From Elusimicrobiota bacterium (GTDB lineage: Bacteria > Elusimicrobiota > Elusimicrobia > UBA1565 > UBA9628): 64,000 nucleotides of DNA. The position numbers were made by a program, and so were the translations under genes. Below, piece by piece: positions 13,813 to 53,122 of the stretch (position 1 is the first letter of the stretch; each line of letters opens with the position of its first letter). Location of the stretch: assembly GCA_038060535.1 (NCBI GenBank), contig JBBTHA010000021.1:1813-65812 (forward strand), in the 5' to 3' direction. The notes under the pieces are model-generated. The model was not told where the DNA came from and did no database searches. It was given only the letters and a program-made list of their open reading frames with translations.

Positions 13813-13890
13813 GGTGGCCGTAGCTCAGCTGGTTAGAGCGCAGCGCTGTGAACGCTGAGGTCGGGGGTTCAAGTCCCCTCGGTCACCCCA
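13813..13890 (+). tRNA. tRNA-His (anticodon GTG) with encoded G-1 and encoded CCA
   Basis: Hand-folded cloverleaf: G-1 then acceptor GTGGCCG/CGGTCAC, D-arm GCTC/GAGC, anticodon stem CAGCG/CGCTG with loop CTGTGAA, T-arm GGGGG-TTCAAGT-CCCCT, discriminator C, CCA. Confidence 0.85.
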
Positions 13891-13904
13891 GACTTGACGT
13901 GTCA

Positions 13905-13945
13905 AGAGCCGGGGCCAATGTGTCAAGGCCCCGGCTCTTTTTTTG
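13905..13945 (+). terminator. Intrinsic terminator after tRNA-His
   Basis: Stem AGAGCCGGGGCC / GGCCCCGGCTCT with a 10-nt loop, followed by T7. Confidence 0.7.
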
Positions 13946-13969
13946 GCGCGAGTCCGCCGCGTCACGTTT

Positions 13970-14857
13970 TTACCAGCGCCCGCCGAGGCTGAAGCGGTGC
14001 GCGCGCCCGAGCTCGCCGGAAGCGAGCACGGCGTAGTCGAGACTCCAGGTCGCGCCGCGAAAGCCCAGGCCCATCGCCAAACCACGCGCAGCGTCGAAGC
14101 CCGAGCCGCCGGCGGCCGTTTGCGTCGCATAGCCCGCGCGCAGATAGAGATGCGAGACCGCCTGGTACTCGCCTCCCAAGGCCGCCTGCGTCCCCGCCCC
14201 GCGCGGGCCGTTGATGAGCTCGACAGCGGCCGAATGTCCGCCCTCCGACGTGTACGCCGCGCCCAGGGCCAGCCTCAGGGGCAAATCGTCGCGCCTATCG
14301 GCGAATTTAAGACCCGCGCCCAGATTGCGCAGCGCCGCACCCAGGCTGAGCCGCTCGAAGCGGCGCTGGGCGCCGAGGTCGAGGGCGACGCCCTGCGCCT
14401 CTGAAGACCCGATATGGCTGCGGATGTATTTGACGCCGACGCCGACGCGGGCGAACTCGAGGGCGCGCCCGTAGCCCAGGCTGAGCGCCGCGTCCGAGGC
14501 GTTGTAGCCTGGGGCTGGACGTCCGAGAGCGTCGCGCCCCTCGATTCGGGCTTGGCTTAAGTAGGTCACCCCCCCCGAGAACGTTCCCCGGCTCGTGGGC
14601 TGGGCGTAAGTCAGGGAGTCGAGGCGGGTGCTCTCGAAAAGTTCGGCGTGGCCCGCGGTAAATTCGCGTTTTTCAAGCGCCGCCAGCCCAGCGGCATTCC
14701 AGTGCAGGGCGTTGGCGTCGTCGGCCAGCGCCGTATAGGCTCCACCCAGTCCCAAGGCCCTCGCGCCCGCGCCGATATTCAAAAACGCCGCGCCCTCGGC
14801 CGCCCGGCAGTCCGGGCGGCCAAGAAAGAGCAACGCGGCGAGCAGGAGCGTTCTCAT
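13970..14857 (-). CDS. Outer-membrane beta-barrel protein, PorV/PorQ-like (family assignment tentative)
   Basis: Signal peptide. N-terminal Gly-rich motif AAFLNIGAGARALGLGGAYTA, remembered from PorV/UPF0164-type FadL-like barrels. Alternating amphipathic strands and C-terminal aromatic residue. Starts 1 nt after the stop of the ORF carrying a T9SS-type C-terminal domain. Confidence 0.5.
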   Translation of the reverse strand: MRTLLLAALLFLGRPDCRAAEGAAFLNIGAGARALGLGGAYTALADDANALHWNAAGLAALEKREFTAGHAELFESTRLDSLTYAQPTSRGTFSGGVTYLSQARIEGRDALGRPAPGYNASDAALSLGYGRALEFARVGVGVKYIRSHIGSSEAQGVALDLGAQRRFERLSLGAALRNLGAGLKFADRRDDLPLRLALGAAYTSEGGHSAAVELINGPRGAGTQAALGGEYQAVSHLYLRAGYATQTAAGGSGFDAARGLAMGLGFRGATWSLDYAVLASGELGRAHRFSLGGRW

Positions 14858-14858
14858 G

Positions 14859-15767
14859 TTATTTCACGACCCCGACCTTGCCCGTCTTGCGGATATCCGC
14901 GCTTCCGGCTTTTTTGGCCGTGAGCGTGTACGTATAGACTCCCGAGGCCACGCCCGAGACGTCCCAGGAGTGGTCGTATGTGTTTTGATTGCCTTTGCCG
15001 TTTCCGTCGTCGAGCAGGCTGAAGCGGAAATCCGAGGAGGAATGGACCTTGCGGCCGGAGGCGTCGTAGATTCGGACTTCGACCGAGTCGGCCCTGCCGG
15101 GCTGGAGGCGCAAGGTCACCGCCGCGCCGCCTCGCGAGGGACTGGGGAAAGCGTAGGCGTCGCGAAGCGAGAACTCGTCGAGCGCCGCCGCCGTGCCGAT
15201 GCCTCCGCCGGGGCCCATCACCTGATAGACCGAGAAGTGCTGGGTCTGGGCGCTAAGCGTTTGATTCTGCTTATCGACTGCCGAGGCCAGCGCCTGCCAG
15301 TCTTGGAGCGAGGCGTTCCAGTAATGGATCTTGAGATCGTCCTCCTTCAGGCCCCGCGCGGCGCTCAGGTGGACGTCATAGGGCAGCGTCAGCGTCACCA
15401 GCGTATTGAATACCGTCCCCTCGGGGCCGAAGCGGACTTCCGGGCCGGCGGCCGTCAACCGCCTGTCGCGGCGCTTGGCTTCCTTGGAGGCCGTGTCCTG
15501 ATTCTCATCGGGCTCATCGACCGTGATCTCGAGGTCCGTGCCGAGGGCGCCCTGGGGCACCCAGACGCCCGCGCCGTCGTCGCGCTCGACGGAGGCGCCG
15601 TCGGCGGCCTCGACGAAGCGGCGCGCGCTTTGCAGAGGCTCGACGGCGACGCTGTCGCCGCCGACCGAGAGGGCGGCCACGCCCGAACCGGCCGCCAAGG
15701 GCAGGGTGTAGCGCACGACGCGGTCGCGTCCTGAATCGGTGATCCAAAGCGAGCCATCCGGGCCCAT
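14859..15767 (-). CDS. NHL-repeat segment plus T9SS-type C-terminal sorting domain; probably the 3' portion of the upstream giant gene
   Basis: No signal peptide. Begins MGPDGSLWITDSGRDRVVRY (NHL-like). Ends VEVRIYDASGRKV...SWDVSGVASGVYTYTLTAKKAGSADIRKTGKVGVVK, which matches the Por_Secre_tail pattern. Same reading frame as 15792..21449 and separated from it only by TAG. Confidence 0.6.
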   Translation of the reverse strand: MGPDGSLWITDSGRDRVVRYTLPLAAGSGVAALSVGGDSVAVEPLQSARRFVEAADGASVERDDGAGVWVPQGALGTDLEITVDEPDENQDTASKEAKRRDRRLTAAGPEVRFGPEGTVFNTLVTLTLPYDVHLSAARGLKEDDLKIHYWNASLQDWQALASAVDKQNQTLSAQTQHFSVYQVMGPGGGIGTAAALDEFSLRDAYAFPSPSRGGAAVTLRLQPGRADSVEVRIYDASGRKVHSSSDFRFSLLDDGNGKGNQNTYDHSWDVSGVASGVYTYTLTAKKAGSADIRKTGKVGVVK

Positions 15768-15791
15768 GGCCGCGTCGTTAGGCGCGGTTAG

Positions 15792-18700
15792 CTAGCGGAC
15801 GGCGAGCTTGTCGGCGCGGGAAAGCCCCGCCGAGCTGCCGAAAGCGAGCAGGCCTTTGCCCTGCGCGTCGAACTTCTGCACGCGGTTGCGGTTGGTCTCG
15901 ACTGTGTACACGGACCCCAGGCGGTCGGCGGCCACGCCCCGCATCCGCGAGAGTTCCCCGATCGCCGAATCCGCGCCGCCGATGGACCGAATCAAAGTTC
16001 CCGCGCGGCTGAACAGGAACAGGCGCTGGCGCTCGTGATCCGACACCCAAAGGCCTTCCGGGGCCAAGGCGATGCCTCGTATATCGTCATGGGAGGAGAG
16101 CACTCCCGTGCCGAAGCGGCGCAGAAAGGTCCCCGAGGAGTCGTACACCTGGACGCGGTGTTTGCCCGAGTCGGCGGCGTAGACGTCGCCGATTAAGTCG
16201 ACGGCCACATCCCGCGGCGAGCACAGACCCTTGAGCTCGCGCAGGACTTGCGCGCCGTCGGGGGAAAAGACCACGATACGGTCGTTGCCGATGTCGGCGA
16301 CATAGACGTTGCCGGCGCCGTCGAGCGCCAAGCCCTGGGGTTTTTTCAGGCGCCGGCCGTGCCCCTCGACGGTCGCGGCCACGCCCCCCGCGGGTGTGAG
16401 CAGAAGCAAGGCGTCGTCGACGGCGACCCAAATCCTTCCATCCGGGCGCACCGCGATTCCCGTGGGGTTTTTAAGTCGTTTGACGATGGCATTCGCGTTT
16501 CGGCGGCCGATGGCGAAGGACATGACGGGCCGGCCGACGTAGACTCCCGCCGTCGTCGCGGCCGCGTTGCCAAAGGCGTCGACGGCGCGCAGCCGCAGCG
16601 TGCGGTGGCCCGAGAGCGCCGACGTGTTCCAGGCCGCGATCTGCCCCGTGCGCTGGCCCGAGCCGGACGCGATCGTCGTAAATCCGCTTGTGGCCGTGGC
16701 GCCGGGAGCCGACTCGAGCGTCCAGCTGACCGCGCTATCGTCTGACACCGCGCCGCGCACGTTGACGACGCCCCCCACCGCGCGCTCCACGCCGAGGGCC
16801 GAGGAAGCGGGAAAATCCAGTCGCACCAACGGCGGGACATGATCGGAGGAGGGCCCTGCGACGGATATCTCGAAGCGCCGAGGATCCTCGCGGTTGAGCG
16901 CGCGGTCCACGCTGAAAAAAACCAAGGAATGCGCGCCCGCACCGAGGCTGAACGTCGAGACGAAGACCGTCTCGGTCGCGCCGTCGATGGAAAAGCGGGT
17001 CTCAAGCGCGCCCGTACCCGCGTCTGAGGCGGCAAAGCCCAAGGAGTCGGTCGAGACCAGAACCAGGCTTGTCGCCGAGACGCCCAGGCCGTTGACTTGA
17101 AGCGTCGTGACGGGAGGCAGGCTGTCGATGAAGAACACGGCGCTTGCCGTAGACGTGTTGCCGGCCGCATCCGACACCGAGGCCGTAAGGGTGTGGGCCC
17201 CTTGGTCGAGCGGGGCCGCGGGCGTGAAGGCCGCCTCGGAGGCGGAGATGGCCGCCAGGGAGGTTTTATCCGCGCCGTCAAGGCTCAGGCGCACTGAGGT
17301 GGTGGCGATTCCCACCCCTAGATCGGCGTACGTCGCCAGCAGCGTCGGCACGGCGGTCGTGACCGTGCTGCCGTCAACGGGCGATAAAGCCAGGCTGGGC
17401 GGGACGTGATCTACGGGCGGCGCGGCGACGGCGATTGACACGGTCTTGGCCGGCTCGGCGTTGCCGACGTTATCGATACTCTGGAAGACCAAGGAATGCG
17501 TGCCTATCGAGAGTGAAAACGTCGAGACAGCTACAGTGGTCGCCGTGCTTCCATCGAGGGCGTACAGGGTCTGGGCAACGCCCGATCCGGAGTCGGATTT
17601 TAAGAAGGAGAATTCGGTCGTCATGCTCACGACAAGCGTCGCCGATGAAGAAATCACATTGTCGACCAGGAGCTTGGTGACAGGGGGCGTCGAGTCTAGG
17701 ATGAGATTGCGCGTCTGAGGCGCTTCGGCGTTGCCGATCAGATCGACGCTGTGGAACGTGACGCTGTGCGGCCCCTCTCCAGTCAGTACAATCGAAGACA
17801 CAAGGGGTATGGACGATCCGTTATCGATCGAGACGAACGTTTGCGCAACGCCAACTCCCAGACCGTCGCCAACGGTGGTTTGGTCGTCCGTGGCCGATAA
17901 AGAAACGTTTGTCTGAGAACTCACATAGAGCGGATCGTTGCCGTAGCTCGGTGTTTCGGCGATAAGGGACGTCCTCGGCGCAAGAACATCGAGACTGACC
18001 TGAAAAGCTTGCGTCTCCAGAGCGGAACTGTTTCCGGCCCAATCCGAGGCGCGCACGACAAGCTTCCAGCTCCCCTGGGATAGTGACGAGGCGGGAATCG
18101 AGGTTCCGTTGGCCGCGGCTATGGATTGCCCCCCATCCAGCGATATGAAATAGGCCGTGGCGCCCGGAGCCAAGTCCGCATTGTCATGGACCGTAAAGCT
18201 CACCCCGATCGATGCCGCCCCGGAAAATGTCTCCCCTCCATTCGGGGATGTTATCGCGATCGCGGGGGCGACGTCGTCTATCAGGTCCAGGGACCCCGTG
18301 CTGAGCGCGGCCGCATATCGCGAGTCCCCATCAAAACGGGCTCGCAGCGGCCATCTGAGCTTGAGCGGTTGGGGAAGCGCGAATTGGAAAGCGACCGTCG
18401 CGCCCGCCAGGAGCGATGAGGCCAGCGGTATAGCCGTGCCGGAGGCGTCGAGCGTTTCAAGAACGACGGTCTTGGGCTCCTGCGTTTGCCGCTGGAGCGT
18501 TTGGGCCTGCTCATCGGTCAGGGTCAAGACAAGATGAACTGTATCCGTGGGACGAGCGGAAGCAAAGGGCGCTTGAAGGTGAGTGGCCCGTGTTGTGAGC
18601 GTAAAAGGGGTATTGGCGGAGCTGGGTAAGTAGAAGAAATTGTCGCCGGCATAGTTCATCGTGAGGTTGTAATTGCCGGCGGCCGATGAAAGGAAAATCG

Positions 18701-21449
18701 AAGCTGCGGCCATGCCGGTTGAACCCGTTCTCGCGTTCTGGGTGAGGCCGGCGAGTTGGAAGCTGACCGGTTGGCGCAAGGCCGGGCCGTTATCCGTGGT
18801 CAAACGCGCGGCCAAAGCCGCCGTGTCCAGGAACGCCACGCTTGAGACGCCCACATATGAGAACCGGGTTTCCAAAGGGACGGCCGAGATCACGGTATTG
18901 GTCGGGGTGATCGTTTGCAAGGCGTTGGGGAAGTAGACCAGCGCCTGGTTGCTGACGACCGTGCCCGGGGGCGAGGTCGACTTGAGGCGTGTCTCAATGA
19001 CGAAGCTCCCACCGTGATGAGGCCCCGCGTTGCCGGTCAGGACGGTGACGGTTCTCGTTTTGAGGTCGTAGGACCAGGGGAAATTGGCGGGGGTCGTCGA
19101 GATGGGAACATCATCGACGAAAACGTGGGTGTTCATGTCGCGCACCGTCAGAATAGAATCATCCAAGTTGGGGTCCAGGACATCCTTGATAAAGACGCCC
19201 AACGCCGTGCCGTCGCCCACGTTCTCGAACTCAAGGGTATAGGTCATGAGTTGGCCCGGGGTCACCGAGCCCTCTGGACCGTACAGGTGGTTGGGGTCGC
19301 CGGGCACGAGGAATTGGGTCGGCGGATAGAAAATCGAGGGCGGCCAATCGGCGGGAGCCCCCGCACCCGGACCGCCGGGAACGTTGGGCGGCAAGGTGCA
19401 GCTCGCCACGCCGGAAACGAGACAGGGCGGCTGCGGGGTCGATGGAGGATGAGGAGGAGGCCTTGAGCCGCCGGGACCCGCCCCGGGGCCGGGCGGCTTC
19501 TCCCCGCCGGGAGGGACCATAACGAAGCTGCTCTGCGAGCAATTGTCCGCCACGCTGCACGCCTGGGCCCAGTACCAAACGTTTTCCTCAAGGGTGAAGC
19601 CGAGCGAGGCGCCTCCCGGACCGGCTTGGGCGACGGGGGACGCGTAGTCCGTGTCGAGAAAGACCGAGAGGCTTTTCATCGGCGCGTTGGACGGGGGCGG
19701 CGTGGCGCTGATATTGACCCAGCCGTTTTGCGTGTCGTCGGTGTCGTTGAGCACCTTGCCCGCGCCGTCGATGACCCATAATGTCGGCGGGGTTGCGTCG
19801 ATTGAGAAATTCACCAGTGTAGCCCTTGCCCTCAATGATGCGGCAGTTGATTGAAGGCTCCGCTGGTCGGGGAGGAATGTGTCGTACGTGCCATTCTCAT
19901 CCTTGATCTGCGCCAAGAAGGCGTAGAAGCCATCCTGTAAACCGAGAAGCTCGGTGTCGATGAGGAGCTCCAGTCCGTCTAAAGGGGTCGCGTCCTCGCT
20001 AACAATGGTCCAGTTGCTCAGGTCCTGAAGGCGCGCGTCGATAAAGGCATCGCTATCGCCGCCAGGTAAAGCCTCGTTCAGGATCAAGAGCCTGGCCCCA
20101 CTCGTGTTCTCTGGAGTCGCCCCGAGGTTCAGCTCGCTGGCGAGAAACGGCTGGATTCGAACCTTGGCCTTCTTGCCGATGCTGTCCGAGGACGTTGGGG
20201 TACTGAAATTACCATCGAGCTTCTTGTCGACCCCCGACACTTTCGCACGAGAATAGACGATCCCATGTGTCTCGCTGATTTTCCTAAACGCCTCCTTCTT
20301 GACCGTGGGGCTTCTCGCCATGTACGCGTCCCAGAACTCCTTGAAGTTTGACGGCCTCGCCTGCGAGACGGCTGCCCAAAGGGTCGCGAAGTCAGAGGAT
20401 ATGCCATCATCATCGGCTGGGTCCGCGATATCCCAGAGCACGCTGGCGACAGCGCCCTCCACGCTTTCTCCGGAGTGACTCAGGCCGGAGGCCGCCGGAT
20501 CGAAGCTTCCTTTCCAGAACGTGTTCGCCTCGAGCGTCATGGTGGTGCCTGGATTGCCGATGAACTGAAGATTACTCGCTACGGCGTCCATCATGAAGTT
20601 CGACCAGCCTTCGAGCCAGGCGAAGATTGGCTCTGAAATGGTTATGAAGGTGTGCGGCTGCGCGAAAGAGCTCGTCGGGAGGTGATTCCCATAGATCGAG
20701 AACATGACCGCGTGCGCGTACTCGTGATAAATCGCTTCACGCATGAACATCAACGGCTTGCCGAAACGGAGCTCTCCGTCGACGCCGAAGAATCCCAGGA
20801 AGTTGTTGAACTCGAAGCCGGTTGCCATCGTATCAGGATCGATCTCTGCGTCAAGTTGCACCCGGCTGACATAGGCCGGAATTCGGTCATGAAGCCATTT
20901 GTCCATGACGTAGACTTCTTTCAGGACGTTTGCCCCGCCGACCTCAAGGTCGCTCGCCGTCTGAGGGATCGTGATGTCATTCGAGTACGTGCCGCTGATT
21001 CCCGGGATCACGTCGGTGTTGTAGATGATAGTGGAGGCAGAGCCCTGAGGCGTCGCCAAGACCAGGCTCGTCACCAAGGGAACCTCAAAAACGAGGTCGA
21101 AGGAGGTGAAATCACCGTTGTCAATAGTCCCCTGTATCCTTCCCGCAGAGTCGGTTGTAAGTTCTCCGAGGAGGATGTCCCCGAACAACTGATGATGGTA
21201 GACGCGGACGGTCACGCCGGGAGGAAATGTCTTGATCGAGGGCGCGTTGTCCAGCGACTGCGACAAGAAAGAAAGGCCGGACACGTTGCCTTTGTTGTGG
21301 ACCTTGACGACGCTGTTGATCGTCACCTGGCCGGCGGCAGCGCTCAGAGGGCAGCAGATGAGCAGGGCGCACAGGCCAGAGCTTCTTATGGCTCCACCCC
21401 ATCGTGCCATCGCGCGTTCGACCACGTTGATCATTCTCAATGCTGCCAC
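15792..21449 (-). CDS. Giant secreted surface protein: HExxH metalloprotease-like N-domain, Pro-rich linker, Ig-like/DUF11-like repeats, NHL beta-propeller
   Basis: 1885 aa. Signal-peptide-like MARWGGAIRSSGLCALLICCPLSAAAG. REAIYHEYAHAV zinc-binding motif. PPGPGAGPGGSRPPPHPPSTPQPP linker. Repeated beta-sandwich-type segments. C-terminal NHL repeats (VYVADIGNDRIVVF, VYAADSGKHRVQVYD, VYTVETNRNRVQKFD). Start codon ambiguous: GTG 21449, or ATG at M6 or M14. Confidence 0.8.
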   Translation of the reverse strand: MAALRMINVVERAMARWGGAIRSSGLCALLICCPLSAAAGQVTINSVVKVHNKGNVSGLSFLSQSLDNAPSIKTFPPGVTVRVYHHQLFGDILLGELTTDSAGRIQGTIDNGDFTSFDLVFEVPLVTSLVLATPQGSASTIIYNTDVIPGISGTYSNDITIPQTASDLEVGGANVLKEVYVMDKWLHDRIPAYVSRVQLDAEIDPDTMATGFEFNNFLGFFGVDGELRFGKPLMFMREAIYHEYAHAVMFSIYGNHLPTSSFAQPHTFITISEPIFAWLEGWSNFMMDAVASNLQFIGNPGTTMTLEANTFWKGSFDPAASGLSHSGESVEGAVASVLWDIADPADDDGISSDFATLWAAVSQARPSNFKEFWDAYMARSPTVKKEAFRKISETHGIVYSRAKVSGVDKKLDGNFSTPTSSDSIGKKAKVRIQPFLASELNLGATPENTSGARLLILNEALPGGDSDAFIDARLQDLSNWTIVSEDATPLDGLELLIDTELLGLQDGFYAFLAQIKDENGTYDTFLPDQRSLQSTAASLRARATLVNFSIDATPPTLWVIDGAGKVLNDTDDTQNGWVNISATPPPSNAPMKSLSVFLDTDYASPVAQAGPGGASLGFTLEENVWYWAQACSVADNCSQSSFVMVPPGGEKPPGPGAGPGGSRPPPHPPSTPQPPCLVSGVASCTLPPNVPGGPGAGAPADWPPSIFYPPTQFLVPGDPNHLYGPEGSVTPGQLMTYTLEFENVGDGTALGVFIKDVLDPNLDDSILTVRDMNTHVFVDDVPISTTPANFPWSYDLKTRTVTVLTGNAGPHHGGSFVIETRLKSTSPPGTVVSNQALVYFPNALQTITPTNTVISAVPLETRFSYVGVSSVAFLDTAALAARLTTDNGPALRQPVSFQLAGLTQNARTGSTGMAAASIFLSSAAGNYNLTMNYAGDNFFYLPSSANTPFTLTTRATHLQAPFASARPTDTVHLVLTLTDEQAQTLQRQTQEPKTVVLETLDASGTAIPLASSLLAGATVAFQFALPQPLKLRWPLRARFDGDSRYAAALSTGSLDLIDDVAPAIAITSPNGGETFSGAASIGVSFTVHDNADLAPGATAYFISLDGGQSIAAANGTSIPASSLSQGSWKLVVRASDWAGNSSALETQAFQVSLDVLAPRTSLIAETPSYGNDPLYVSSQTNVSLSATDDQTTVGDGLGVGVAQTFVSIDNGSSIPLVSSIVLTGEGPHSVTFHSVDLIGNAEAPQTRNLILDSTPPVTKLLVDNVISSSATLVVSMTTEFSFLKSDSGSGVAQTLYALDGSTATTVAVSTFSLSIGTHSLVFQSIDNVGNAEPAKTVSIAVAAPPVDHVPPSLALSPVDGSTVTTAVPTLLATYADLGVGIATTSVRLSLDGADKTSLAAISASEAAFTPAAPLDQGAHTLTASVSDAAGNTSTASAVFFIDSLPPVTTLQVNGLGVSATSLVLVSTDSLGFAASDAGTGALETRFSIDGATETVFVSTFSLGAGAHSLVFFSVDRALNREDPRRFEISVAGPSSDHVPPLVRLDFPASSALGVERAVGGVVNVRGAVSDDSAVSWTLESAPGATATSGFTTIASGSGQRTGQIAAWNTSALSGHRTLRLRAVDAFGNAAATTAGVYVGRPVMSFAIGRRNANAIVKRLKNPTGIAVRPDGRIWVAVDDALLLLTPAGGVAATVEGHGRRLKKPQGLALDGAGNVYVADIGNDRIVVFSPDGAQVLRELKGLCSPRDVAVDLIGDVYAADSGKHRVQVYDSSGTFLRRFGTGVLSSHDDIRGIALAPEGLWVSDHERQRLFLFSRAGTLIRSIGGADSAIGELSRMRGVAADRLGSVYTVETNRNRVQKFDAQGKGLLAFGSSAGLSRADKLAVR

Positions 21450-22869: not shown

Positions 22870-22952
22870 CTGCACCCCTTCTCCCTCACCGCCTTCGAAG
22901 GATTCGATAACAATAACTCGGCGCGTTTTAACAGCTAATCCATCTGACAGCA

Positions 22953-25900
22953 TCATGGAGTCCCCCCGACGGGATAGTGCGCGAAGACCTGATCAGCCCA
23001 AGCTTTGCTCAGAAGTTCCACGTGCCCTCCCGTAAGAAATTCGTGCGGCTGCGGTCCGCCAGGGGCCATGAGCCGGAAGCGAGCTTGGTAGTTCAGCTTG
23101 ACGGCGCTTCGCGGCGGTATCTGCGCAATATCCCAACGCACGAACGGGGTCGGGGAGTAAAGCTTGGTATTGCGCCAGGAGGCGACATTGTAGACGACGT
23201 AGGAGCCCGAAGCCGAGACAAAATCCGCCCAATCCGTTAAGCCCACGACGACCGACACCCCGGTTGCCGCCGCGAAGCCGTCGTTGCGGATGGTAATGAG
23301 GTGCGATTCCACGGCGCCCGGAAACGCGACATGGGGATGGGTGGTCAATACGCTGAGCAGAGGCTGGATCGGCGCGCCGACGTCGAGCCGCTCCAGCGTG
23401 AGGAGCAGCGATCTCGGCGCCTTGGCGACCAGGATCCCCTCGAAGCGGCTCCGAATCGGCTGATCGTAGAGGCCGCTAAGACGCGCGACCTGGCTGTAGT
23501 TGGCGACCGCATAAGCCCAGCCGACGCCCGTGCCAAAGGTCGAGGAATATGTGGGTAGGAAGAAACCCTCGCCGTTGTAAGGGTTGCCGGGGCTGTTTAC
23601 GGTGACCAAGGTGAAGGTGTTCTCAAGAGGACCGACTTCATAGCCGCTTGTCTGACCAGTCAGCGATGACTGTCGAAGGTTCAGAGCGGTCCCAGGATAT
23701 TGGGTCGACTGCGGGGCCGGAGCGCTGCCGCTGAAGTGGAGGCGGCTGGCACCGAACTGATTGCCGATCTGCGTCGCGCCGCAAGACAGCGACATGCGGT
23801 CGAAGTTGCCGCTGCCGGGCACGGACTCGGTCAGGACGCCTTCCAGTACGCCGCGGATGCCGCCTGCGAGGACTCCTTTGAGGACCATCCGCCGAGGCGC
23901 CTGCGTCAAGAACGCGGCGCCCTGCCAGAGGCCCGACAGGAAGGCCCCGTCAGCGAGACCCAAGGTCCATGCGCCTCGGAAGAAGCCGTTGCCCGCCAAT
24001 GAGCCGCTCTGAAGCGTGACCAACCGCATCTGCGCCTGGCTGAAGGTTCCCGGTGTGACGCCGGTGGACGTTGCTCCGGAGAAGTCGAGTGCCTGAGCCG
24101 AAAGCGTTTCGGTCAGCGACTGGCTGGCCGATAATGTCTCCTGCAATTGGGAAAATGTCACCGTTGGAGGGCTGTTGGTGTTGCTGAAACCGACGAGTTG
24201 ATTGTTATCTAAAATAGTTCCAGCATTGCCGTTTCCAGTTCCCGTGCCACCGGCGACGAGGAGCGCGTATGATGCTGTCTTGGCGCCATAGGATAAGGCG
24301 ATCCTCCCTCCGCCGCCTCCCGAGCCACCCACACTGGTGCCTCCCCCGCCATTTGCCCTGAGTACTCCCGTTCCCGCAAGAGCGGCTGCATTGATGTTGA
24401 TAGTGCCGCCGCCGCCCCCTCCTCCGCCGGTTCCGTAATAGGGCTCAGGAGCGCCGGCCACGCCATTGGCTGAAATCAAACCGTCGAGCGTGAGTGTACC
24501 GCCGACCTGCAGGAGCACCGCGCCTCCGCCGGCTCCGCCGGCGATTCCCCCACCAGCGGTGCTGCCGCCGCCCTGAGACCCCAATTCGGTAGGGAAAAGT
24601 GCGCTGTCGTATGTCGCTTCGCCCGAACTGCCTTCGGATCCCGCTCCCCCAGCACCCCCGTGCCCGCCGCCGCCCCCGGAACGATATCCCTTACCGCCGC
24701 CGCCTGGCCCGGCGCCGACCTGATTCCCACCATACCGTGTATATCCTTTGCCATCCACCGAGATGGCCGAGCCCGACTGCACGATCATATTTCCGCTCAC
24801 GTTGAGATTTAGAATGGAAGATTGTGTCAGGCCGTTGGGTCGGTGAGTTATTTGAGCGCCGGGATCCATTCTGATCGATGTGAAATTTAAAGGCAATGAG
24901 CTCTCCTGCTCAAACAATCCTCCGTTGCGGACGATAAGATTGACATTCGACAGGGAGCCCTCTGACCACGTTAAGATCCCACCCGTACGAATTTCCAGGG
25001 GATTGTTTCCGAGGGTCAGGTCGCCGAACGCCGCCGTCATTGTGCCCTGGATGACAAGTGATCCCGCAATGAGACTTGGCGCCTTTAATGTCGCCGAACC
25101 GATCACGACGAGGGAATCGACGGATGTTGAACTCCCTGTAAAGATGAGTGTCGCGTTGGTCAGCGAGACCGCGGCCAAAGTCAGCGGCGAGTCAGTCACT
25201 GGAGTGTGCGCCTGCGGGATGCGAGTCGAACTTCCGACGGTCAGGCTGCAATGAGTCGCTCCGGGGTTCTTCTCCACGATCGTGCCGGCTCCGCCGTTGA
25301 TTCCTGTGGATCCGCCGCCATTCCCAGAGAGTGCCGCAATGCTCAGGCTCGCCGCATGGCTTTGCGTGACATTCAGCGCGATTCGGCCCCCTCCTCCTCC
25401 CGAGCCACCCACACTGGTGCCTCCCCCGCCATTTGCCCTGAGTACTCCCGTTCCCGCAAGAGCGGCTGCATTGATGTTGATAGTGCCGCCGCCGCCCCCT
25501 CCTCCGCCGGTTCCGTAATAGGGCTCAGGAGCGCCGGCCACGCCATTGGCTGAAATCAAACCGTCGAGCGTGAGTGTACCGCCGACCTGCAGGAGCACCG
25601 CGCCTCCGCCGGCTCCGCCGGCGATTCCCCCACCAGCGGTGCTGCCGCCGCCCTGAGACCCCAATTCGGTGGGGAAAAGTGCGCTGTCGTATGACGTTTC
25701 GCCCGAACTGCCTTCGGATCCCGCCCCCCCAGCGCCCCCGTGCCCGCCGCCGCCCCCGGAACGATATCCCTTACCGCCGCCGCCTGGTCCGGCGCCCACC
25801 TGATTTCCGCTTGATCCCGTATAGCCAAGCCCATCAGCTATTATGGTCGCTCCAGCGGGGAGATTGAAATCGTCCGTCACGTTGAGATTAAGGACAGACG

Positions 25901-27482
25901 AGCGACTCGTTGAATTGATTCCATGTCTCATGGTCCCGCCGGGATGAACCATGACGGAAGTAAAGGTTAAGGGAGTCGTGTTGATTTGAACGAATGTGCC
26001 GCCGCTGTTCACCATCAATGGACCATTGCTTGAGGTCGCTGCCATTTGAAATACCGCGCCAGGCATAACGATCGCGTTAGCGTTCCACGAAATCGAAGCC
26101 GCCTTGAGTGAGGCCGTTCCGACAATCACCAAATTATCGAGCGATACAACGCTGCCGGAATCGAAATTAATGGCGCTGTTGTTGAGCGTCATGAGGCCGA
26201 ATGAGAGATTCGTTCCATGAATCGGGGTCATCGCTTGCGGCGCAACGGATAAACCTGCTGATAGTCCGCCGAGAACTAAATCGAAGTTTGGCTTAGTTCC
26301 GCTGCGAGTCGCGGCGATCCCGGCGCCGCCGGCGGCAGAGCCGCCCGCGCCAGAGCCTCTGTTTGCCTGTACGGAAAGATTCGAGGTATTTTGATCGGTG
26401 ACTCTGATGCTAACGATGCCCCCGCCCCCCCCGCCGCCCCCCACGCCCCCCGAAATCGCTCCCGGCCCTCCATTTGCATGGATGGATCCCGTTCCGCTCA
26501 GGCTACCCGCTGTAATTTTGACCGTGCCGCCCGCGCCGCCGCCGCCGCCGCTGTCACCGTCAAAACCGCCGGCTGGATGACCTGGGAGACCGTCAGCGGT
26601 AATTGTTCCGTTGAGTACCAGCGTTCCTCCGATCGAAATCAACACGGTTCCGCCGCCATACCCACCGAGACCATCGACGCAGCCTTGTGACCGTCCTCCC
26701 CCTCCGCCCGAACCTAAATCCGTGGGATCGATGTAATTGTCATACGACGCGCCGCCATTGATCGGGTTGCTGGGTTGGCCGGTGTTCGCGTTTTCTCCAT
26801 TGCCTCCCATTCCGGCATGCCCGCCGCCCCCGCCGCCCAACGGGAGAACGCCGGGTCCCGCGCCAGTAGCGCCGGTTCCACCCCCGCCTGGTCCATAACC
26901 CGACGTGTGGGTCGAACAGGGCATTCCGCCTGCGTAGCCCAAGCCATTGACCACGATCGTTGCGCCCGCCTGGAGATTGAAGTCGCCGATCACGTTTAAA
27001 TTGACAAGGGAAGAGAGGGTCGATGAATTCGGAGTGTGAGTGATCACGCCGCCGGGCATCAGATTCATCTCGCCCAGGCTTATTTGTTGGGTTGTATCCT
27101 GCTGGAGTTTCGCTCCCGAGTATACAGTGACCGCGCCGTTTGTTGTTTGGGCGGCCGATAGGCGCAGCGTAGGAGAGAAATTCCCAGCGGCATCACCGAG
27201 CGTCAAAGTTGCGAATGCGATGGATGAACCCCCACCAGCGGTGATGGTTGCGTTATTGTCGATGACGACATTGTCGGCAGAGGAGGGGACCCGGGCGGCA
27301 GACCAGTTGCCCGCAACGAACCAATTGCCATCTACGCTGCCCGTCCAGGTCAGAGTGGATGCGCTCACGTTTAGGGCGATCGTCGAGAGAGATAAAACGA
27401 CCGCAACAACGGCCGCCACAAAAAGACGGGGAGACCTGAGTAAATTTCTTTGCGACGAAGATGGTGTGTCTATTGCAACCAC
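22953..27482 (-). CDS. Giant Gly-rich beta-helix-like surface protein with C-terminal DUF11-like domain
   Basis: 1509 aa. N-terminal hydrophobic anchor or signal. Reiterated NxxxxGxxxxxG beta-helix-like rungs (TWTGSVDGNWFVAGNWS...). Long poly-Gly tracts. A ~150-aa segment is duplicated almost exactly. C-terminal segment ITIRNDGFAAATGVSVVVGLTD resembles a DUF11 conserved repeat domain. Confidence 0.75.
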   Translation of the reverse strand: MVAIDTPSSSQRNLLRSPRLFVAAVVAVVLSLSTIALNVSASTLTWTGSVDGNWFVAGNWSAARVPSSADNVVIDNNATITAGGGSSIAFATLTLGDAAGNFSPTLRLSAAQTTNGAVTVYSGAKLQQDTTQQISLGEMNLMPGGVITHTPNSSTLSSLVNLNVIGDFNLQAGATIVVNGLGYAGGMPCSTHTSGYGPGGGGTGATGAGPGVLPLGGGGGGHAGMGGNGENANTGQPSNPINGGASYDNYIDPTDLGSGGGGGRSQGCVDGLGGYGGGTVLISIGGTLVLNGTITADGLPGHPAGGFDGDSGGGGGAGGTVKITAGSLSGTGSIHANGGPGAISGGVGGGGGGGGIVSIRVTDQNTSNLSVQANRGSGAGGSAAGGAGIAATRSGTKPNFDLVLGGLSAGLSVAPQAMTPIHGTNLSFGLMTLNNSAINFDSGSVVSLDNLVIVGTASLKAASISWNANAIVMPGAVFQMAATSSNGPLMVNSGGTFVQINTTPLTFTSVMVHPGGTMRHGINSTSRSSVLNLNVTDDFNLPAGATIIADGLGYTGSSGNQVGAGPGGGGKGYRSGGGGGHGGAGGAGSEGSSGETSYDSALFPTELGSQGGGSTAGGGIAGGAGGGAVLLQVGGTLTLDGLISANGVAGAPEPYYGTGGGGGGGGTININAAALAGTGVLRANGGGGTSVGGSGGGGGRIALNVTQSHAASLSIAALSGNGGGSTGINGGAGTIVEKNPGATHCSLTVGSSTRIPQAHTPVTDSPLTLAAVSLTNATLIFTGSSTSVDSLVVIGSATLKAPSLIAGSLVIQGTMTAAFGDLTLGNNPLEIRTGGILTWSEGSLSNVNLIVRNGGLFEQESSLPLNFTSIRMDPGAQITHRPNGLTQSSILNLNVSGNMIVQSGSAISVDGKGYTRYGGNQVGAGPGGGGKGYRSGGGGGHGGAGGAGSEGSSGEATYDSALFPTELGSQGGGSTAGGGIAGGAGGGAVLLQVGGTLTLDGLISANGVAGAPEPYYGTGGGGGGGGTININAAALAGTGVLRANGGGGTSVGGSGGGGGRIALSYGAKTASYALLVAGGTGTGNGNAGTILDNNQLVGFSNTNSPPTVTFSQLQETLSASQSLTETLSAQALDFSGATSTGVTPGTFSQAQMRLVTLQSGSLAGNGFFRGAWTLGLADGAFLSGLWQGAAFLTQAPRRMVLKGVLAGGIRGVLEGVLTESVPGSGNFDRMSLSCGATQIGNQFGASRLHFSGSAPAPQSTQYPGTALNLRQSSLTGQTSGYEVGPLENTFTLVTVNSPGNPYNGEGFFLPTYSSTFGTGVGWAYAVANYSQVARLSGLYDQPIRSRFEGILVAKAPRSLLLTLERLDVGAPIQPLLSVLTTHPHVAFPGAVESHLITIRNDGFAAATGVSVVVGLTDWADFVSASGSYVVYNVASWRNTKLYSPTPFVRWDIAQIPPRSAVKLNYQARFRLMAPGGPQPHEFLTGGHVELLSKAWADQVFAHYPVGGTP
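24319..24725. repeat. Intragenic near-identical direct repeat, copy 1 (~407 bp)
   Basis: Near-identical to 25399..25805 with a few mismatches seen by eye. It encodes VGAGPGGGGKGYRSGGGGGHGGAGGAGSEGSSGE...GGGGGRIAL twice. Confidence 0.8.
25399..25805. repeat. Intragenic near-identical direct repeat, copy 2 (~407 bp)
   Basis: See copy 1. The spacing between copies is 1080 bp. Confidence 0.8.
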
Positions 27483-27577
27483 TGGCGGCCCGCCATGACG
27501 CTGCTTTTCTGCCTAAATTGTACCAATCCACAAGTAAGAAATGTAAACCGATGGCAAGATGGCAAGGCGGGCAGTTG

Positions 27578-28486
27578 TTAATGCAGCTCGAGCACAAAAG
27601 TCATATCTGGGTGATCGCCGTAGGAATAGGGCTTTTCAAACCACAGCTTCATGGAGATTTTCGCCGGGAGGTCTTTGACGGTGAACCGGAAGTTCCGAGA
27701 GGGCGCCGGGCTCATATTGTTGCAGCAAGAGGCCGGATTTCCGCAGCTTCCTCCGCAATGGATGTACTGAGGAATTTGAATGGCGTGAACGCTGTCGCTT
27801 TGCCAGGCGATGTTTTTTGAATTGGCTCCGTCTACCCAAAGGTAGTTTAAACCAAAGTCCCGTGCGTTGTATCCGATAAGCTCAAGTTCACGGTCGAATC
27901 CGCTTGCCGTGCGGGACAGAAAGTCGAAATATTTTCCAACTTCATAACGAGCCGCCGCTTGGGCGGAGTCGCTGCGCCATTCCAGGGAGGACGGCAGCAG
28001 GTGCGGCGGATCTTCACCATTGACGCCTAAGAGATTCCATAGAATGTAGTGTTCGCTCAATCCTACAAGCAAAAAAGGATTATTGATAAACCGCGAATGA
28101 GTGGAAATGCCCTCATTGCTTTTCGCGCCCGGTCCGTGATGATCCCACCCACCGAAGCCCCACCAAGGTTTCCCATCTTCGATTGATTCGAATACGCGGC
28201 TTGGTTCGTAATCGGCGGCCGCAAGATCGGGATGTCGAAGGACGAATTCTTTTCGGAGCCCGTACAAATCCCGGCGCGCCTTCCCATTTAAGTCCGAGGG
28301 CGGATTTATGCCCACGCTGCGGAAGCCGCCGAATTTGGCTTCCCCCTTCAAATAAAGGTGATTCGATGTTGGCCTTGCTCTTTTTTTAGAAAGAGGTTCG
28401 CCTTCGCAGCCGCACATCATGATGGCTAATAGGGCAAATCCGAGCCTAATGCCCGGAGTGAAATAATGGATCAAGTTCATCGCCAT
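27578..28486 (-). CDS. Hypothetical lipoprotein in a lower-G+C region
   Basis: Lipobox-like LAIMMCGC after a hydrophobic N-terminus. Cys-rich C-terminal segment (HCGGSCGNPASCCNN). No family recognised. The region is visibly AT-richer than the genome background. Confidence 0.55.
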   Translation of the reverse strand: MAMNLIHYFTPGIRLGFALLAIMMCGCEGEPLSKKRARPTSNHLYLKGEAKFGGFRSVGINPPSDLNGKARRDLYGLRKEFVLRHPDLAAADYEPSRVFESIEDGKPWWGFGGWDHHGPGAKSNEGISTHSRFINNPFLLVGLSEHYILWNLLGVNGEDPPHLLPSSLEWRSDSAQAAARYEVGKYFDFLSRTASGFDRELELIGYNARDFGLNYLWVDGANSKNIAWQSDSVHAIQIPQYIHCGGSCGNPASCCNNMSPAPSRNFRFTVKDLPAKISMKLWFEKPYSYGDHPDMTFVLELH

Positions 28487-28643
28487 CGCCGATCGATCAG
28501 GCGGCCCACTGATTTCTTTTAGCTCGGTACAAGGGCGCTCCAGCTTGCTCCGAATAAAGCCATTATACTGACTAAAGTCGGGAACTCTAACACTTTATTT
28601 CGGTTATATCGAGATTTAATTTGATTCCCCGCCCGATTGTCGC

Positions 28644-28907
28644 TTACGGGAATCGCTCGGGAACATTGTCGAGCGTGAAGGCGAGTCTGAGTCGCTTAAG
28701 GATGGTTCGATCGGGCCGCGAAACATCGGCTTCATATCGGATCACCGTGAACGGCCGCACCTTTAGCGAGCGCGCCAAGTCCTTGAGCTTAAGACCGCGT
28801 CGCATCCTCAGGTTCTTGAGCCAGCCGCCGAACGTCGTGGGCGGGATCAGTAAGTCATAGGGGTCCCCCTTCGCCCCGGGAAACGCCTCCTTGAAGGGGT
28901 CGGCCAA
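28644..28907 (-). CDS. XRE-family HTH regulator (as called from its TTG start); the frame is open upstream to 29174 and encodes a second XRE HTH with no ATG/GTG/TTG start
   Basis: HTH2 is WLKNLRMRRGLKLKDLARSLKVRPFTVIRYEADVSRPD. The in-frame upstream region encodes HTH1 (LRFLRHKAGLSLDALAEKSGLQRNILSRLERDK) but has no canonical start before TTG 28907. Possible pseudogene or non-canonical initiation. Confidence 0.4.
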   Translation of the reverse strand: MADPFKEAFPGAKGDPYDLLIPPTTFGGWLKNLRMRRGLKLKDLARSLKVRPFTVIRYEADVSRPDRTILKRLRLAFTLDNVPERFP

Positions 28908-29224
28908 GAATGGGAGAATTCGTCCAAGGACCCAGGGGAGGTTAGCTTCGCGGCCCTTGTCGCGCTCGAGCCGGGAGAGGATGTTTCGCTGAAGTCCGCT
29001 CTTCTCGGCCAGGGCGTCGAGGCTCAGGCCGGCCTTGTGGCGAAGAAAGCGGAGCCGAACGCCGAGAGAGGCCTTGCCCGGGTCGGGGAGCAGGAAAGAA
29101 ACGGGTTTGACCGGTTTAAAGCGTCTTTTCAGCCCGAATTCTGTCCCCGCTACATCCCCTATGGGACCCCAGCTTTAATGAGACGGCCTCGGTCGTTGCA
29201 AGTAAAAGTTAGACTAACAGCCGC

Positions 29225-37116: not shown

Positions 37117-37210
37117 CGCCTTCAATATGGCTTTCCTGGGTGATATCCAGCATGAGGCTTTCGGTCTTTTCCGCAAGGCCAAAGGACCTGGACCGGAAAA
37201 GTGCTGCGTG

Positions 37211-53037: not shown

Positions 53038-53122
53038 TGGATAATCCTCCGGAAATGGGCGCAAATGGGACGAACATTCTACCTCCAGCCGGCGTGCGCA
53101 CGGCGCGCGCCGGTCGCGATCG

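Follow-up and report, generated by a model that had tools for sequence, protein, structure and literature searches.

A TAG-interrupted copy of a probable cargo/barrel cassette with T9SS-type parts in groundwater Elusimicrobiota

The described systems closest to the locus presented here belong first of all to the T9SS. In the type-A cargo/PorV system of the Bacteroidota (SprA-PorV, 6H3I), the cargo combines an N-terminal Sec signal peptide with a C-terminal β-sandwich domain (CTD) of ~100 aa, and PorV is a FadL-like barrel of the PorV family; the same parts recur in a gene cluster of an Elusimicrobiota MAG from a Hainich groundwater assembly, analysed here within a 64-kb window, i.e., the whole stretch of DNA under study. 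Besides its occurrence in another phylum, the Elusimicrobiota system differs in having a barrel that scores under the PorV and PorQ equivalog thresholds, in the lack of any T9SS core seen in the window, and in the number of barrels: PorV occurs once per genome, whereas the Elusimicrobiota barrel occurs once per cargo, directly downstream of it. The PorZ-PorQ and PorU-PorV pairs of Porphyromonas gingivalis, which are not known to be generally encoded by adjacent genes, are machinery components, whereas the partners of the barrel are here diverse enzyme or adhesin cargos. With respect to the general logic, a dedicated barrel encoded next to each cargo and devoted to surface anchorage is also found for the type-B CTD and its PorP/SprF-like barrel, e.g., SprB-SprF of Flavobacterium johnsoniae, and Gorasia et al. 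are said to have described in 2022 type-B CTD cargo with such a cognate barrel. The CTD of the window, in contrast, is type-A-like and its barrel belongs to the PorV/PorQ family. Specialised T9SS shuttles are treated in PMC12618676.

Two other groups of proteins share the predicted autoproteolytic side of the system. The microbial GAIN (MAIN) proteins (Brogan and Rudner, bioRxiv 2026, doi 10.64898/2026.05.12.724683), such as YfkN of Bacillus subtilis, are large proteins that possess, like the cargo described here, a signal peptide, enzymatic or adhesion domains, an autoproteolytic β-sandwich with an HFS motif, and a surface anchor. F/S cleavage at HFS was demonstrated for Firmicute proteins only, the vast majority of the anchors consist of sortase motifs, cell-wall-anchoring domains or SLH domains, and the T9SS goes unmentioned in that paper. 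The likeness is one of HFS motif and architecture, and the anchor differs, consisting here of a T9SS-type CTD and a cognate barrel in a diderm. The ZU5 releasing peptidases of bacterial polymorphic toxins and surface proteins (Zhang et al. 2012, PMC3482391) similarly associate a ZU5-superfamily autopeptidase with β-propellers and interchangeable enzymatic domains in large secreted proteins. However, ZU5 is typically N-terminal and the toxin domains C-terminal in these toxins of the RHS/TcdB type, whereas in the Elusimicrobiota cargo ZU5 adjoins the C-terminal anchor and it is the N-terminal domain that varies.

A literature search returned no published description of the module. On balance, the cluster is probably one copy, broken by a TAG codon, of a conserved cassette of (groundwater) Elusimicrobiota, with a two-gene core made of a cargo and its barrel, as proposed below.

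Layout and base composition of the cluster

All genes from 13970 to 29174 run in the same direction on the minus strand, as stated in a preliminary description of this DNA, and the stop codon of the PorV-like gene lies 80 nt from the 3′ end of tRNA-His. Counting outward from the tRNA, the first junction leaves 1 nt between the ORFs and the second 24 nt, in frame; the next three are overlaps of 13, 22 and 4 nt, and farthest upstream the ORFs are separated by 95 and 157 nt. The features are as follows:

13814..13890, plus strand: tRNA-His (GTG), left neighbour of the cluster (ARAGORN)
13906..13945, no strand assigned: G+C-rich hairpin with a 12-bp stem, between tRNA-His and the stop codon of the PorV-like gene (read from the sequence)
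13970..14857, minus strand: PorV/PorQ-family outer-membrane β-barrel, 295 aa (NF033709 and Pfam UPF0164)
14859..15767, minus strand: 302-codon ORF comprising a fragment of the last NHL blade, a ZU5/GAIN-like domain, a Gly-rich linker and a type-A-like CTD
14862..15170, minus strand: T9SS type-A-like CTD, about aa 200-302 of the 302-codon ORF (HMMs, fold model)
15207..15635, minus strand: ZU5/GAIN-like domain, about aa 45-187 of the same ORF (Pfam ZU5)
15231..15239, minus strand: codons of H177-F178-S179, predicted autoproteolytic site with F/S cleavage (motif conservation and model)
15792..15794, minus strand: in-frame TAG inside the last NHL blade, splitting the cargo gene (frame reading)
15792..21449, minus strand: passenger ORF, 1885 codons (Pfam and NCBIfam domains)
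21437..22090, minus strand: lineage-specific secreted hypothetical protein, 217 aa (no family)
22069..22956, minus strand: 295-aa protein with weak TPR matches, every one below cutoff
22953..27482, minus strand: 1509-aa Gly-rich (21% Gly) β-strand-repeat protein with a signal peptide (homologue names)
27578..28486, minus strand: 302-aa protein with a membrane or lipid anchor, member of a widespread but uncharacterised family (~245-aa domain)
28644..29174, minus strand: open frame with two XRE-type HTH domains (HTH_31 and HTH_3, in two stretches)

The hairpin close to the tRNA has a T-run after its stem on the plus strand and an A-run before it on the minus strand, and possibly serves as a bidirectional terminator. 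The automatic scan of the cluster for consensus promoters and terminators gave no signal higher than in shuffled sequence, and this exact hairpin is absent from its output.

Upstream of the cargo, the 217-aa protein matches no Pfam or NCBIfam family and has no homologue among the other loci. The position of the 295-aa TPR-like protein is taken by HEAT_2 proteins in four of them (L005, L006, L010 and the P0007 locus). The 1509-aa protein consists of three Gly-rich modules, of which aa 547-711 are almost the same as aa 907-1071, its gene containing a 300-nt repeat of 98% identity, followed by a family-specific C-terminal region of 430 aa common to only about 25 proteins and ending in a DUF11/CLIPPER-like domain. 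The DUF11 assignment made previously falls under the threshold (18.8 bits vs 24.6). Homologues of the protein bear the name "beta strand repeat-containing protein [Elusimicrobiota]", and no PDB match was found; both a CTD and a recognisable outer-membrane export signal are missing from it, which counts against the reading preferred here. The protein at 27578..28486, formerly called a lipoprotein, does possess Cys residues after an N-terminal hydrophobic helix but, as read from its sequence, no canonical lipobox; its ~245-aa domain contains the conserved motif H-x-GGSCG-x(3)-G-x-CNNMSP. The proposed tandem-HTH regulator has two HTH domains in frame but no ATG, GTG or TTG ahead of HTH-1, the earliest canonical start, a TTG at 28907, yielding HTH-2 alone. 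No tblastn match to this frame occurs in the other loci, and Response_reg genes occupy its position upstream of the module in L006, L009, L010 and the P0007 locus.

The preliminary description regarded the cluster as a genomic island put in at tRNA-His by horizontal transfer, an origin we consider doubtful. The dips in G+C that it relied on are real, with values of 0.57 (22-23 kb) and 0.54 (27-29 kb) for a flanking-gene mean of 0.646, and GC3 in the four genes at 21.4-28.5 kb is 2.6 to 4.1 SD lower than in 33 flanking genes (z -2.6 to -4.1). The flanks, moreover, differ in every related locus, which also counts in favour of mobility, and genes associated with mobility occur near several of these loci, e.g., an integrase, an excisionase and a methyltransferase (L005), an IS (L017), a Y1 transposase (L010), and ParB and RadC (L006). 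However, the low composition does not extend to the genes that really abut the tRNA: PorV, the CTD ORF and the C-terminal part of the giant (13.97-20 kb) all display a native, host-like GC3 (z -0.3 to +0.7). No integrase or recombinase adjoins the cluster or occurs among the flanking genes of the window, no att-like direct repeat of the 3′ end or half of tRNA-His was detected in the window with up to 3 mismatches allowed, and no other related locus sits beside a tRNA-His, so that acquisition at this site is at best weakly indicated. The low GC3 could instead stem from weak expression, or from an exchange of the upstream half alone at a later time.

The barrel and the C-terminal module of the cargo

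The link to PorV suggested by the preliminary description is borne out by the NCBIfam model NF033709 (PorV/PorQ family), which matches residues 22-292 of the barrel over model positions 3-323 of 326 with 158.1 bits (cutoff 90), and Pfam UPF0164 is matched with 34.7 bits (cutoff 21.4). The N-terminus of the protein is signal-peptide-like, and its sole sequence match in the PDB is PorV of F. johnsoniae (6h3i_F, E=1.6e-5). The equivalog models are not reached, neither that of PorV (NF033710, 75.1 bits vs 250) nor that of PorQ (NF033711, 95.9 bits vs 220), nor is the PorV2 model (67.5 bits vs 325), and the PorP/SprF family is absent among the NCBIfam matches of the barrel.

The CTD of the window scores 22.8 bits with TIGR04183 (cutoff 23) and 25.9 bits with PF18962 (Por_Secre_tail; cutoff 27), and remains below the cutoff of the type-B model CHU_C (19.1 bits vs 27). 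Among its homologues, 26 of 37 match PF18962 at E<=1e-3, and three (P0132, P0140 and P0142) have been named "T9SS type A sorting domain-containing protein" by NCBI. As modelled, the domain adopts the β-sandwich fold of the solved T9SS CTDs and superposes on the CTD of mirolase. Combined with the barrel, this type-A-like CTD supports the earlier view of a cell-surface module with T9SS-type parts.

Upstream of the CTD and its Gly-rich linker, the ZU5/GAIN-like domain is matched by Pfam ZU5 in 34 of the 37 homologues and, with 21.1 bits, in the window protein (cutoff 21). The HMM scores of both window domains, CTD and ZU5, are at or slightly below the curated cutoffs, which counts against the preferred reading. 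None of the 37 homologues departs from F178 or S179, at least 90% of them keep H177, and the extended motif HFSxYQ is present in 54/54 metagenomic loci that reach this region. In the predicted structure, HFS occupies the turn that joins the two final strands (E170-177 and E180-186) of the ZU5-like domain. By analogy with the HFS domains of other proteins, the domain would cleave itself between F and S. The top structural match of the model is ankyrin, a point also counted against the preferred reading, and the ZU5 of ankyrin is not known to be autoprocessing.

The association of this CTD subtype with a PorV-like gene is nearly obligate: the gene occurs directly downstream in 64 of 67 metagenomic loci, at a spacing of 0-93 nt except for one at 348 nt, as well as in L006, L009, L010, L012 and L017-L020, and two cargo/barrel pairs have been found on a single contig. 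This pairing, the ZU5/GAIN-type domain and the in-frame TAG had all been overlooked in the preliminary description.

The locus could also be that of an ordinary T9SS substrate, with the full T9SS encoded elsewhere, the giant being a type-A CTD cargo and the barrel its PorV/PorQ. The family membership of the barrel, the type-A signal of the CTD in the window protein and its homologues, and the modelled CTD fold all agree with such an interpretation. It is nonetheless unlikely: the barrel misses both equivalogs widely, and it is not a single-copy protein, each cargo having its own, whereas Bacteroidota rely on one general PorV shuttle. Furthermore, the T9SS reports retrieved are confined to Bacteroidetes or the FCB group, and none on Elusimicrobia was found in the literature search. 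The preferred reading, a barrel dedicated to each cargo, has against it that no gene for SprA, PorK/L/M/N or PorU occurs within the 64-kb window; GldK/L/M/N, PorW and PorT are not found there either. A weak PorW/SprE hit in the window (55 bits vs 250) was rejected, since it falls in a TPR protein that has a YbgF-type match.

Conserved gene order and exchangeable heads

Comparison of the Elusimicrobiota loci confirms that relatives keep the gene order as a unit. The recurrent succession consists of a Gly-rich giant, a HEAT/TPR protein, one or more small ORFs, the giant cargo and the PorV-like gene, inside differing flanks. The N-terminal heads of the cargo vary with the locus and are non-homologous, on a stalk that is conserved: depending on the locus, they correspond to M14 (Peptidase_M14, 117.7 bits), Amidase_6 (49 bits), M23 or NlpC/P60 (both borderline), or to Kelch. 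In the window, the head is an orphan containing the HExxH motif.

These heads invite an interpretation as a weapon for interbacterial antagonism or peptidoglycan scavenging, provided with swappable cell-wall hydrolases and with small secreted ORFs acting as periplasmic immunity or inhibitor proteins. The M14, Amidase_6, M23 and NlpC/P60 families, which we take to be cell-wall hydrolases, their exchange on a conserved stalk, and the secreted, lineage-specific nature of the ORFs that separate the cargo from the Gly-rich gene speak for it, as does the role of ZU5 domains as releasing peptidases in polymorphic toxins (PMC3482391). The variable domains of toxins, however, are usually C-terminal with the immunity gene downstream (PMC3482391 and established knowledge), no co-variation between head type and upstream ORF could be demonstrated among the loci compared, one head is a Kelch propeller, i.e., a non-enzyme, and that of the window has an HExxH motif only, all of which makes such a weapon rather improbable. 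Display of diverse cargos by a cognate barrel, with release by autoproteolysis, is the reading retained here.

The interrupted cargo gene and the proposed mechanism

The ~2200-aa protein of the preliminary description corresponds actually to two ORFs of 1885 and 302 codons, separated by the TAG. The passenger ORF has a signal peptide, with a likely ATG start at 21410, and successively comprises an orphan N-terminal region, a DUF7619/DUF11-like region, Ig-like domains of the OmpL47-type and Big_13, and NHL repeats. It is conserved in the other loci from about residue 545 on, and its N-terminal 612 aa have neither a homologue nor a PDB match. The protease function formerly attributed to it had as its sole basis the HEYAH motif at aa 242-246 of this region and finds little or no support: the search for zincin homology beyond HExxH gave, as its only match, a SprT-like one over 21 residues (E=0.14), and no peptidase family.

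Where the window cargo has TAG, its relatives carry Tyr, Phe or Trp. The codon is an ordinary stop, used by 11 of the 41 window genes, and the surrounding 111 nt recur unchanged in two further assemblies, the sequence around the TAG being identical in L001, L002 and L003. The NCBI annotation of the MAG likewise gives the 302-aa ORF as a protein of its own (100% identical, "Elusimicrobiota bacterium"); as a separate frame, it begins in the middle of an NHL blade and is devoid of a signal peptide. Signal peptide and CTD are consequently not on one polypeptide in the window, whereas uninterrupted homologues (L006 and L009) have both. The truncated passenger would lose its ZU5-CTD part and the ZU5-CTD ORF would have no signal peptide; the cargo copy of the window has most likely been inactivated recently, or relies at best on rare readthrough. 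That the TAG is programmed for readthrough or recoding, or that passenger and ZU5-CTD ORF form a functional split, is very improbable, for although the codon is fixed in several independent assemblies, both ORFs retain a coding-like GC3 (0.77 and 0.84), some ZU5-CTD proteins (about 350 aa) do stand alone, and one other locus (L017) is frameshifted in the same cargo region, TAG is a normal stop in this DNA, the stand-alone members have their own signal peptide and a different N-terminus in place of a start inside an NHL blade, the homologues are nearly all uninterrupted, and the split of L018 is merely a 100-N scaffold gap.

In the mechanism proposed for the intact cassette, the first core gene would encode a Sec-exported multidomain cargo built up from a variable enzymatic head, a DUF7619/Ig-like stalk, an NHL propeller, the ZU5/GAIN-like domain, a Gly linker and the T9SS type-A-like CTD. 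The second core gene, immediately 3′ of the first, would provide the cognate PorV/PorQ-family outer-membrane barrel, which, by analogy with PorV-CTD, PorQ-PorZ and PorV-PorU, would bind the CTD and keep the cargo on the cell surface. Once the ZU5/GAIN-like domain had cut itself between F and S of H-F-S, the passenger would be held only non-covalently and could be released. The accessory genes that accompany the core pair, i.e., the Gly-rich giant, the HEAT/TPR protein, the small secreted ORFs and the 302-aa anchored protein, may correspond to an additional surface fibre and to helpers in the periplasm. With its cargo gene interrupted, the organism of the window may lack a working version of this mechanism altogether. 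At the level of the phylum, in which no T9SS has been described, the cassette is best read as a surface enzyme system made from T9SS-type parts, which would be anchored by its barrel and releasable by autoproteolysis.

Gene content of the cluster beside tRNA-His

The window comes from a 66-kb contig of a Hainich groundwater metagenome and contains a single tRNA gene predicted by ARAGORN, tRNA-His(GTG) (13814-13890, + strand), which is followed at 13906-13945 by a G+C-rich hairpin with a T-run. The stop codon of the first cluster ORF, encoding the barrel, is located 80 nt from the 3' end of the tRNA. Since eight minus-strand ORFs extend from this point, the gene map of the preliminary description is essentially correct, whereas its interpretation is only partly right: the observation is real but calls for several corrections. 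The ORFs are as follows:

13970-14857, minus strand, PorV/PorQ-family barrel, 295 aa
14859-15767, minus strand, ZU5-CTD ORF, 302 aa
15792-21449, minus strand, passenger ORF, 1885 aa
21437-22090, minus strand, small ORF, 217 aa
22069-22956, minus strand, TPR-like ORF, 295 aa
22953-27482, minus strand, Gly-rich giant, 1509 aa
27578-28486, minus strand, anchored protein, 302 aa
28644-29174, minus strand, open frame with two HTH domains

The first two junctions are gaps of 1 nt and of 24 nt (in frame), the following three are small overlaps, and the last two are spaced by 95 and 157 nt. Beyond the cluster, a gene on the + strand begins at 29225, and the flanking housekeeping genes comprise acetate kinase, NrdJ, a TolA/YbgF-like pair, nucleoside phosphorylases and a split transketolase. 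No second copy of the module was found within the window, and a consensus scan for promoters and terminators gave no excess over shuffled sequence. A perfect TATAAT (in ...gtcagtataatgg...) lies within the 157-nt AT-rich spacer at 28487-28643, 5' of the anchored-protein gene; it lacks a good -35 hexamer under the rules of the scan and is a possible internal promoter. Outside the cluster, the ORFs at 29225-31456 (+), 35545-37182 (-) and 53022-55460 (+), of 743, 545 and 812 aa, respectively, match no NCBIfam family at E<=1e-5, and the first two match no Pfam family at E<=1e-3 either; the 743-aa ORF encodes a polytopic membrane protein, in which a methyltransferase-like GxGxG segment is embedded.

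The Gly-rich giant (21% Gly) contains three Gly-rich modules and is devoid of a CTD. It belongs to no Pfam or NCBIfam family, the DUF11 domain previously ascribed to it being a sub-threshold match, and no PDB entry was matched by sequence or by profile. Residues 547-711 are almost identical to residues 907-1071 (165-aa segments), and a direct repeat of 300 nt with 98% identity and a spacing of 1080 nt occurs within the gene (24298-24597 and 25378-25677); this repeat could reflect a recent intragenic duplication, gene conversion, or the collapsing or expanding of copies during short-read assembly. Many proteins are partial relatives of the giant, and its C-terminal 430 aa are common to only about 25 proteins, this domain occurring in just 6 of 185,579 species-representative genomes. 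Named homologues of both the Gly-rich giant and the CTD ORF come almost all from Elusimicrobiota. The anchored protein belongs to a large uncharacterised family (627 representatives) matched by no Pfam model, and its domain of about 245 aa has no match among solved PDB structures. Both this domain and the 430-aa C-terminal domain of the Gly-rich giants are worth a structural look.

As for the presumed tandem-HTH regulator of the XRE type, both HTH domains are present, but no ATG, GTG or TTG start precedes HTH-1, upstream of which the choice is limited to CTG or ATA codons. The frame offers no canonical start until a TTG at 28907, which would yield HTH-2 alone (87 aa), and the gene may be 5'-damaged or rely on a rare start codon.

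The barrel, the ZU5-CTD protein and the interrupted cargo gene

The PorV-like character of the barrel was upheld by its match to NF033709, the PorV/PorQ family model (158 bits against a cutoff of 90). Its scores fall far under the PorV, PorQ and PorV2 equivalog cutoffs, and its sole PDB sequence match is PorV of F. johnsoniae.

The 302-aa CTD ORF gave a confident AlphaFold2 model (37 homologues, mean pLDDT 85.4) consisting of two domains with a Gly linker of low confidence between them. Of these, the first is ZU5/GAIN-like, and Pfam ZU5 is matched by 34 of the 37 homologues, in which F178 and S179 are invariant and H177 is conserved in at least 90%. The corresponding HFSxYQ motif is present in each of the 54 metagenomic loci extending into this region, and the model places the HFS position in a turn between the last two strands of the ZU5-like domain. 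The second domain is modelled as a β-sandwich. The CTD of the window sequence scores just below the curated HMM cutoffs, and the CTD HMM is matched by 26 of the 37 homologues, three of which are labelled by NCBI as T9SS type A sorting domain proteins.

The protein of about 2200 aa previously described at this place corresponds in fact to two ORFs of 1885 and 302 codons, sharing the same frame and separated by a single TAG at 15792-15794. Translation across this codon (...ADKLAVR*LTAPNDAAMGPDGSLWITDSGRDRVVRY...) locates the stop within an NHL blade, at a position occupied by Tyr, Phe or Trp in relatives. Recoding of TAG was rejected, since 11 of the 41 window genes terminate with TAG, which is thus not reassigned. 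The 111 nt surrounding the TAG are also present in two further assemblies from other runs, and an Elusimicrobiota bacterium MAG annotated by NCBI carries the 302-aa CTD ORF as a separate, 100% identical protein. The homologues are uninterrupted single ORFs, those of the related loci L006 and L009, for instance, being 2381 and 2050 aa long. Taken together, the retained meaning of TAG, its recurrence in further assemblies and the uninterrupted homologues identify this codon, at the sequence level, as a genuine premature stop in this population. As it parts the signal-peptide-bearing passenger from the ZU5-CTD portion, it probably disables the cargo in this genome.

Recurrent splitting of the cargo gene across loci was considered and rejected. 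The split in L018 is a 100-N gap, the cargo of L019 is cut off by the contig end, and the frameshift in L017 is seen in a single assembly. Among the 28 metagenomic ORFs bounded by an upstream stop, stalk homology 5' of the bounding stop occurs in only one other case (L071, a 1.4-kb contig). In L017 (GCA_964623465.1), the giant shifts frame in the NHL region at about 9680-9704, is annotated as 2363 + 413 aa, and has an IS (HTH_Tnp_1 + rve) directly on its 5' side; the frame change may reflect either an assembly error or a second disruption that arose independently.

Related loci, exchanged heads and possible mobility

The complete module comprises, in order, the Gly-rich giant, a HEAT/TPR protein of about 300 aa, one or more small ORFs, a giant cargo of the DUF7619/Ig/NHL/ZU5/CTD type, and the PorV-like barrel. 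This order is present in L006, L009, L010, L012 and the P0007 locus, and partially in L005, L007, L014 and L018. A response regulator usually lies upstream of the module; in the window, the anchored protein and the XRE frame stand there instead. Homologues of the anchored protein occupy other positions of the module, following the giant in L005 and PorV in L019 and L035.

A metagenome scan with the ZU5-CTD alignment retrieved 73 loci. A PorV-like gene lies 0-93 nt 3' of the CTD (348 nt in one case) in 64 of the 67 loci offering at least 700 nt on that side, and a single contig can bear two such pairs. The 28 ORFs with a bounding stop on their 5' side show a bimodal distribution of cargo size: 11 are stand-alone proteins of 282-439 aa made of a signal peptide, a helical segment, ZU5 and CTD, 12 are giants ranging from 929 aa to over 2300 aa, and the remaining 5 are shorter and located on small contigs. 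In L020, a tmRNA gene (3870-4227) situated about 740 nt 3' of the PorV-like gene of a stand-alone pair is another small-RNA neighbour of such a pair.

The passenger of the window (15792-21449) combines DUF7619/DUF11-like, OmpL47-type and Big_13 Ig-like domains with NHL repeats, and its first 545 or so residues contain a HEYAH motif and have no detectable relative. A homologue search with the 612-aa head returned no match, not even the protein itself, and so counts as weak negative evidence; the head has no PDB sequence match, and relaxed Pfam searching gave only a 21-residue SprT-like match. The protease formerly proposed thus retains its HEYAH motif but neither relatives nor a peptidase family, and is a guess at the motif level. 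The heads of the giants, compared over the N-terminal 350-400 aa of the cargo genes of L009, L010, L018, L007 and L017, are non-homologous from locus to locus.

Heads of the giant cargo proteins, by locus
L018: Peptidase_M14
L010: Amidase_6
L009: M23, borderline
L007: NlpC/P60, borderline
L017: Kelch propeller
L005, L006 and L012: shared unknown head
Window: orphan HExxH head

Most of these exchanged families are cell-wall-hydrolase families, and the heads thereby hint at antagonism or peptidoglycan scavenging. When the ORFs located between cargo and Gly-rich gene were considered as candidate immunity genes, their co-variation with head type yielded nothing usable. Just 5' of the giant of L006 (17232-18100), two near-identical 87-aa membrane ORFs accompany a 113-aa ORF in which the giant's signal peptide and the beginning of its head are duplicated; the arrangement looks like the outcome of a local tandem duplication where the cargo gene encodes its head.

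The lower G+C content formerly attributed to the whole cluster applies to half of it. Relative to the 33 flanking genes (GC3 0.805 +/- 0.054), GC3 is depressed in four upstream genes, namely the anchored protein (z = -4.1), the TPR-like ORF (-3.7), the Gly-rich giant (-2.75) and the 217-aa ORF (-2.6), but is native-like in the C-terminal part of the cargo giant (-0.3), the CTD ORF (+0.7) and PorV (+0.2). Compared with the PorV end, the low-GC3 upstream half may be the product of a more recent replacement. Acquisition at tRNA-His, as once suggested, is not supported, since the window contains no integrase, the 3' half of the tRNA matches nothing in the window except the tRNA itself with up to 3 mismatches allowed, and the tRNA-proximal half is native-like. 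Direct repeats in the 13-34 kb region are confined to the Gly-rich gene or are short chance matches, and none of the other loci lies at tRNA-His. Mobility of the module as such is plausible, owing to flanks that differ in every locus, to mobility genes near several of the related loci, and to the low-GC3 upstream half.

Comparison with known systems and significance

The locus is built from parts of known kinds, i.e., a T9SS CTD together with a PorV-family barrel, an autoproteolytic release domain of the ZU5/GAIN type, and heads that can be swapped, and this combination is found in a phylum without an earlier description of any of them. The T9SS is reported as restricted to Bacteroidetes or the FCB group. 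A literature search for a T9SS in Elusimicrobia gave nothing relevant, and none of the T9SS core genes occurs within the 64-kb window. By analogy with PorV-CTD binding and with the barrel-held PorZ and PorU, the barrel would hold the CTD at the outer membrane; the ZU5-like domain is then predicted to cleave itself, as in the microbial GAIN autoproteolytic (MAIN) domains, whereupon the passenger could be shed. Cleavage of MAIN domains between F and S of the HFS motif was demonstrated biochemically, the fragments remaining associated (Brogan and Rudner, bioRxiv 2026, doi 10.64898/2026.05.12.724683), and releasing peptidases of the ZU5 superfamily had earlier been predicted in bacterial surface proteins (PMC3482391). 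MAIN proteins similarly possess a signal peptide, enzymatic and adhesion domains, an HFS β-sandwich and a surface anchor (doi 10.64898/2026.05.12.724683), but their anchors are mostly sortase motifs, cell-wall-anchoring or SLH domains, whereas a T9SS-type CTD and a dedicated barrel occur here. Pairs of type-B CTD and PorP/SprF likewise associate one cargo with one barrel; in contrast, the CHU_C score of the window sequence is below cutoff and its barrel is of the PorV/PorQ type.

An unlikely, though more far-reaching, interpretation is that of a self-contained anchoring system of CTD and barrel that is independent of the T9SS and uses GAIN-type release. In such a system, the pair would act in Elusimicrobiota and some neighbouring phyla as a surface-anchoring, perhaps export, device operating without the SprA/PorKLMN machinery; every cargo would have its own barrel, to which the CTD would remain bound, and self-cleavage of the GAIN/ZU5 type would replace PorU sortase processing as the release step. 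If true, it would represent T9SS cargo handling in a minimal or ancestral form, as well as the first class of microbial GAIN-domain proteins that is diderm and anchored by a barrel, its swappable heads being cell-wall hydrolases directed at neighbouring cells.

The interrupted cargo gene leaves the locus with little practical importance in this particular genome. More generally, the T9SS cargo-handling parts, CTD and PorV-family barrel, occur in Elusimicrobiota as a gene pair that is tightly linked and has been duplicated repeatedly; should the pair work without the remaining T9SS, it would bear on the evolution of this system and on the minimum needs of outer-membrane display. The joining of a MAIN-type domain to an outer-membrane anchor offers a testable model of how giant surface enzymes of an uncultured phylum from groundwater might be shed in dependence on force or a trigger.
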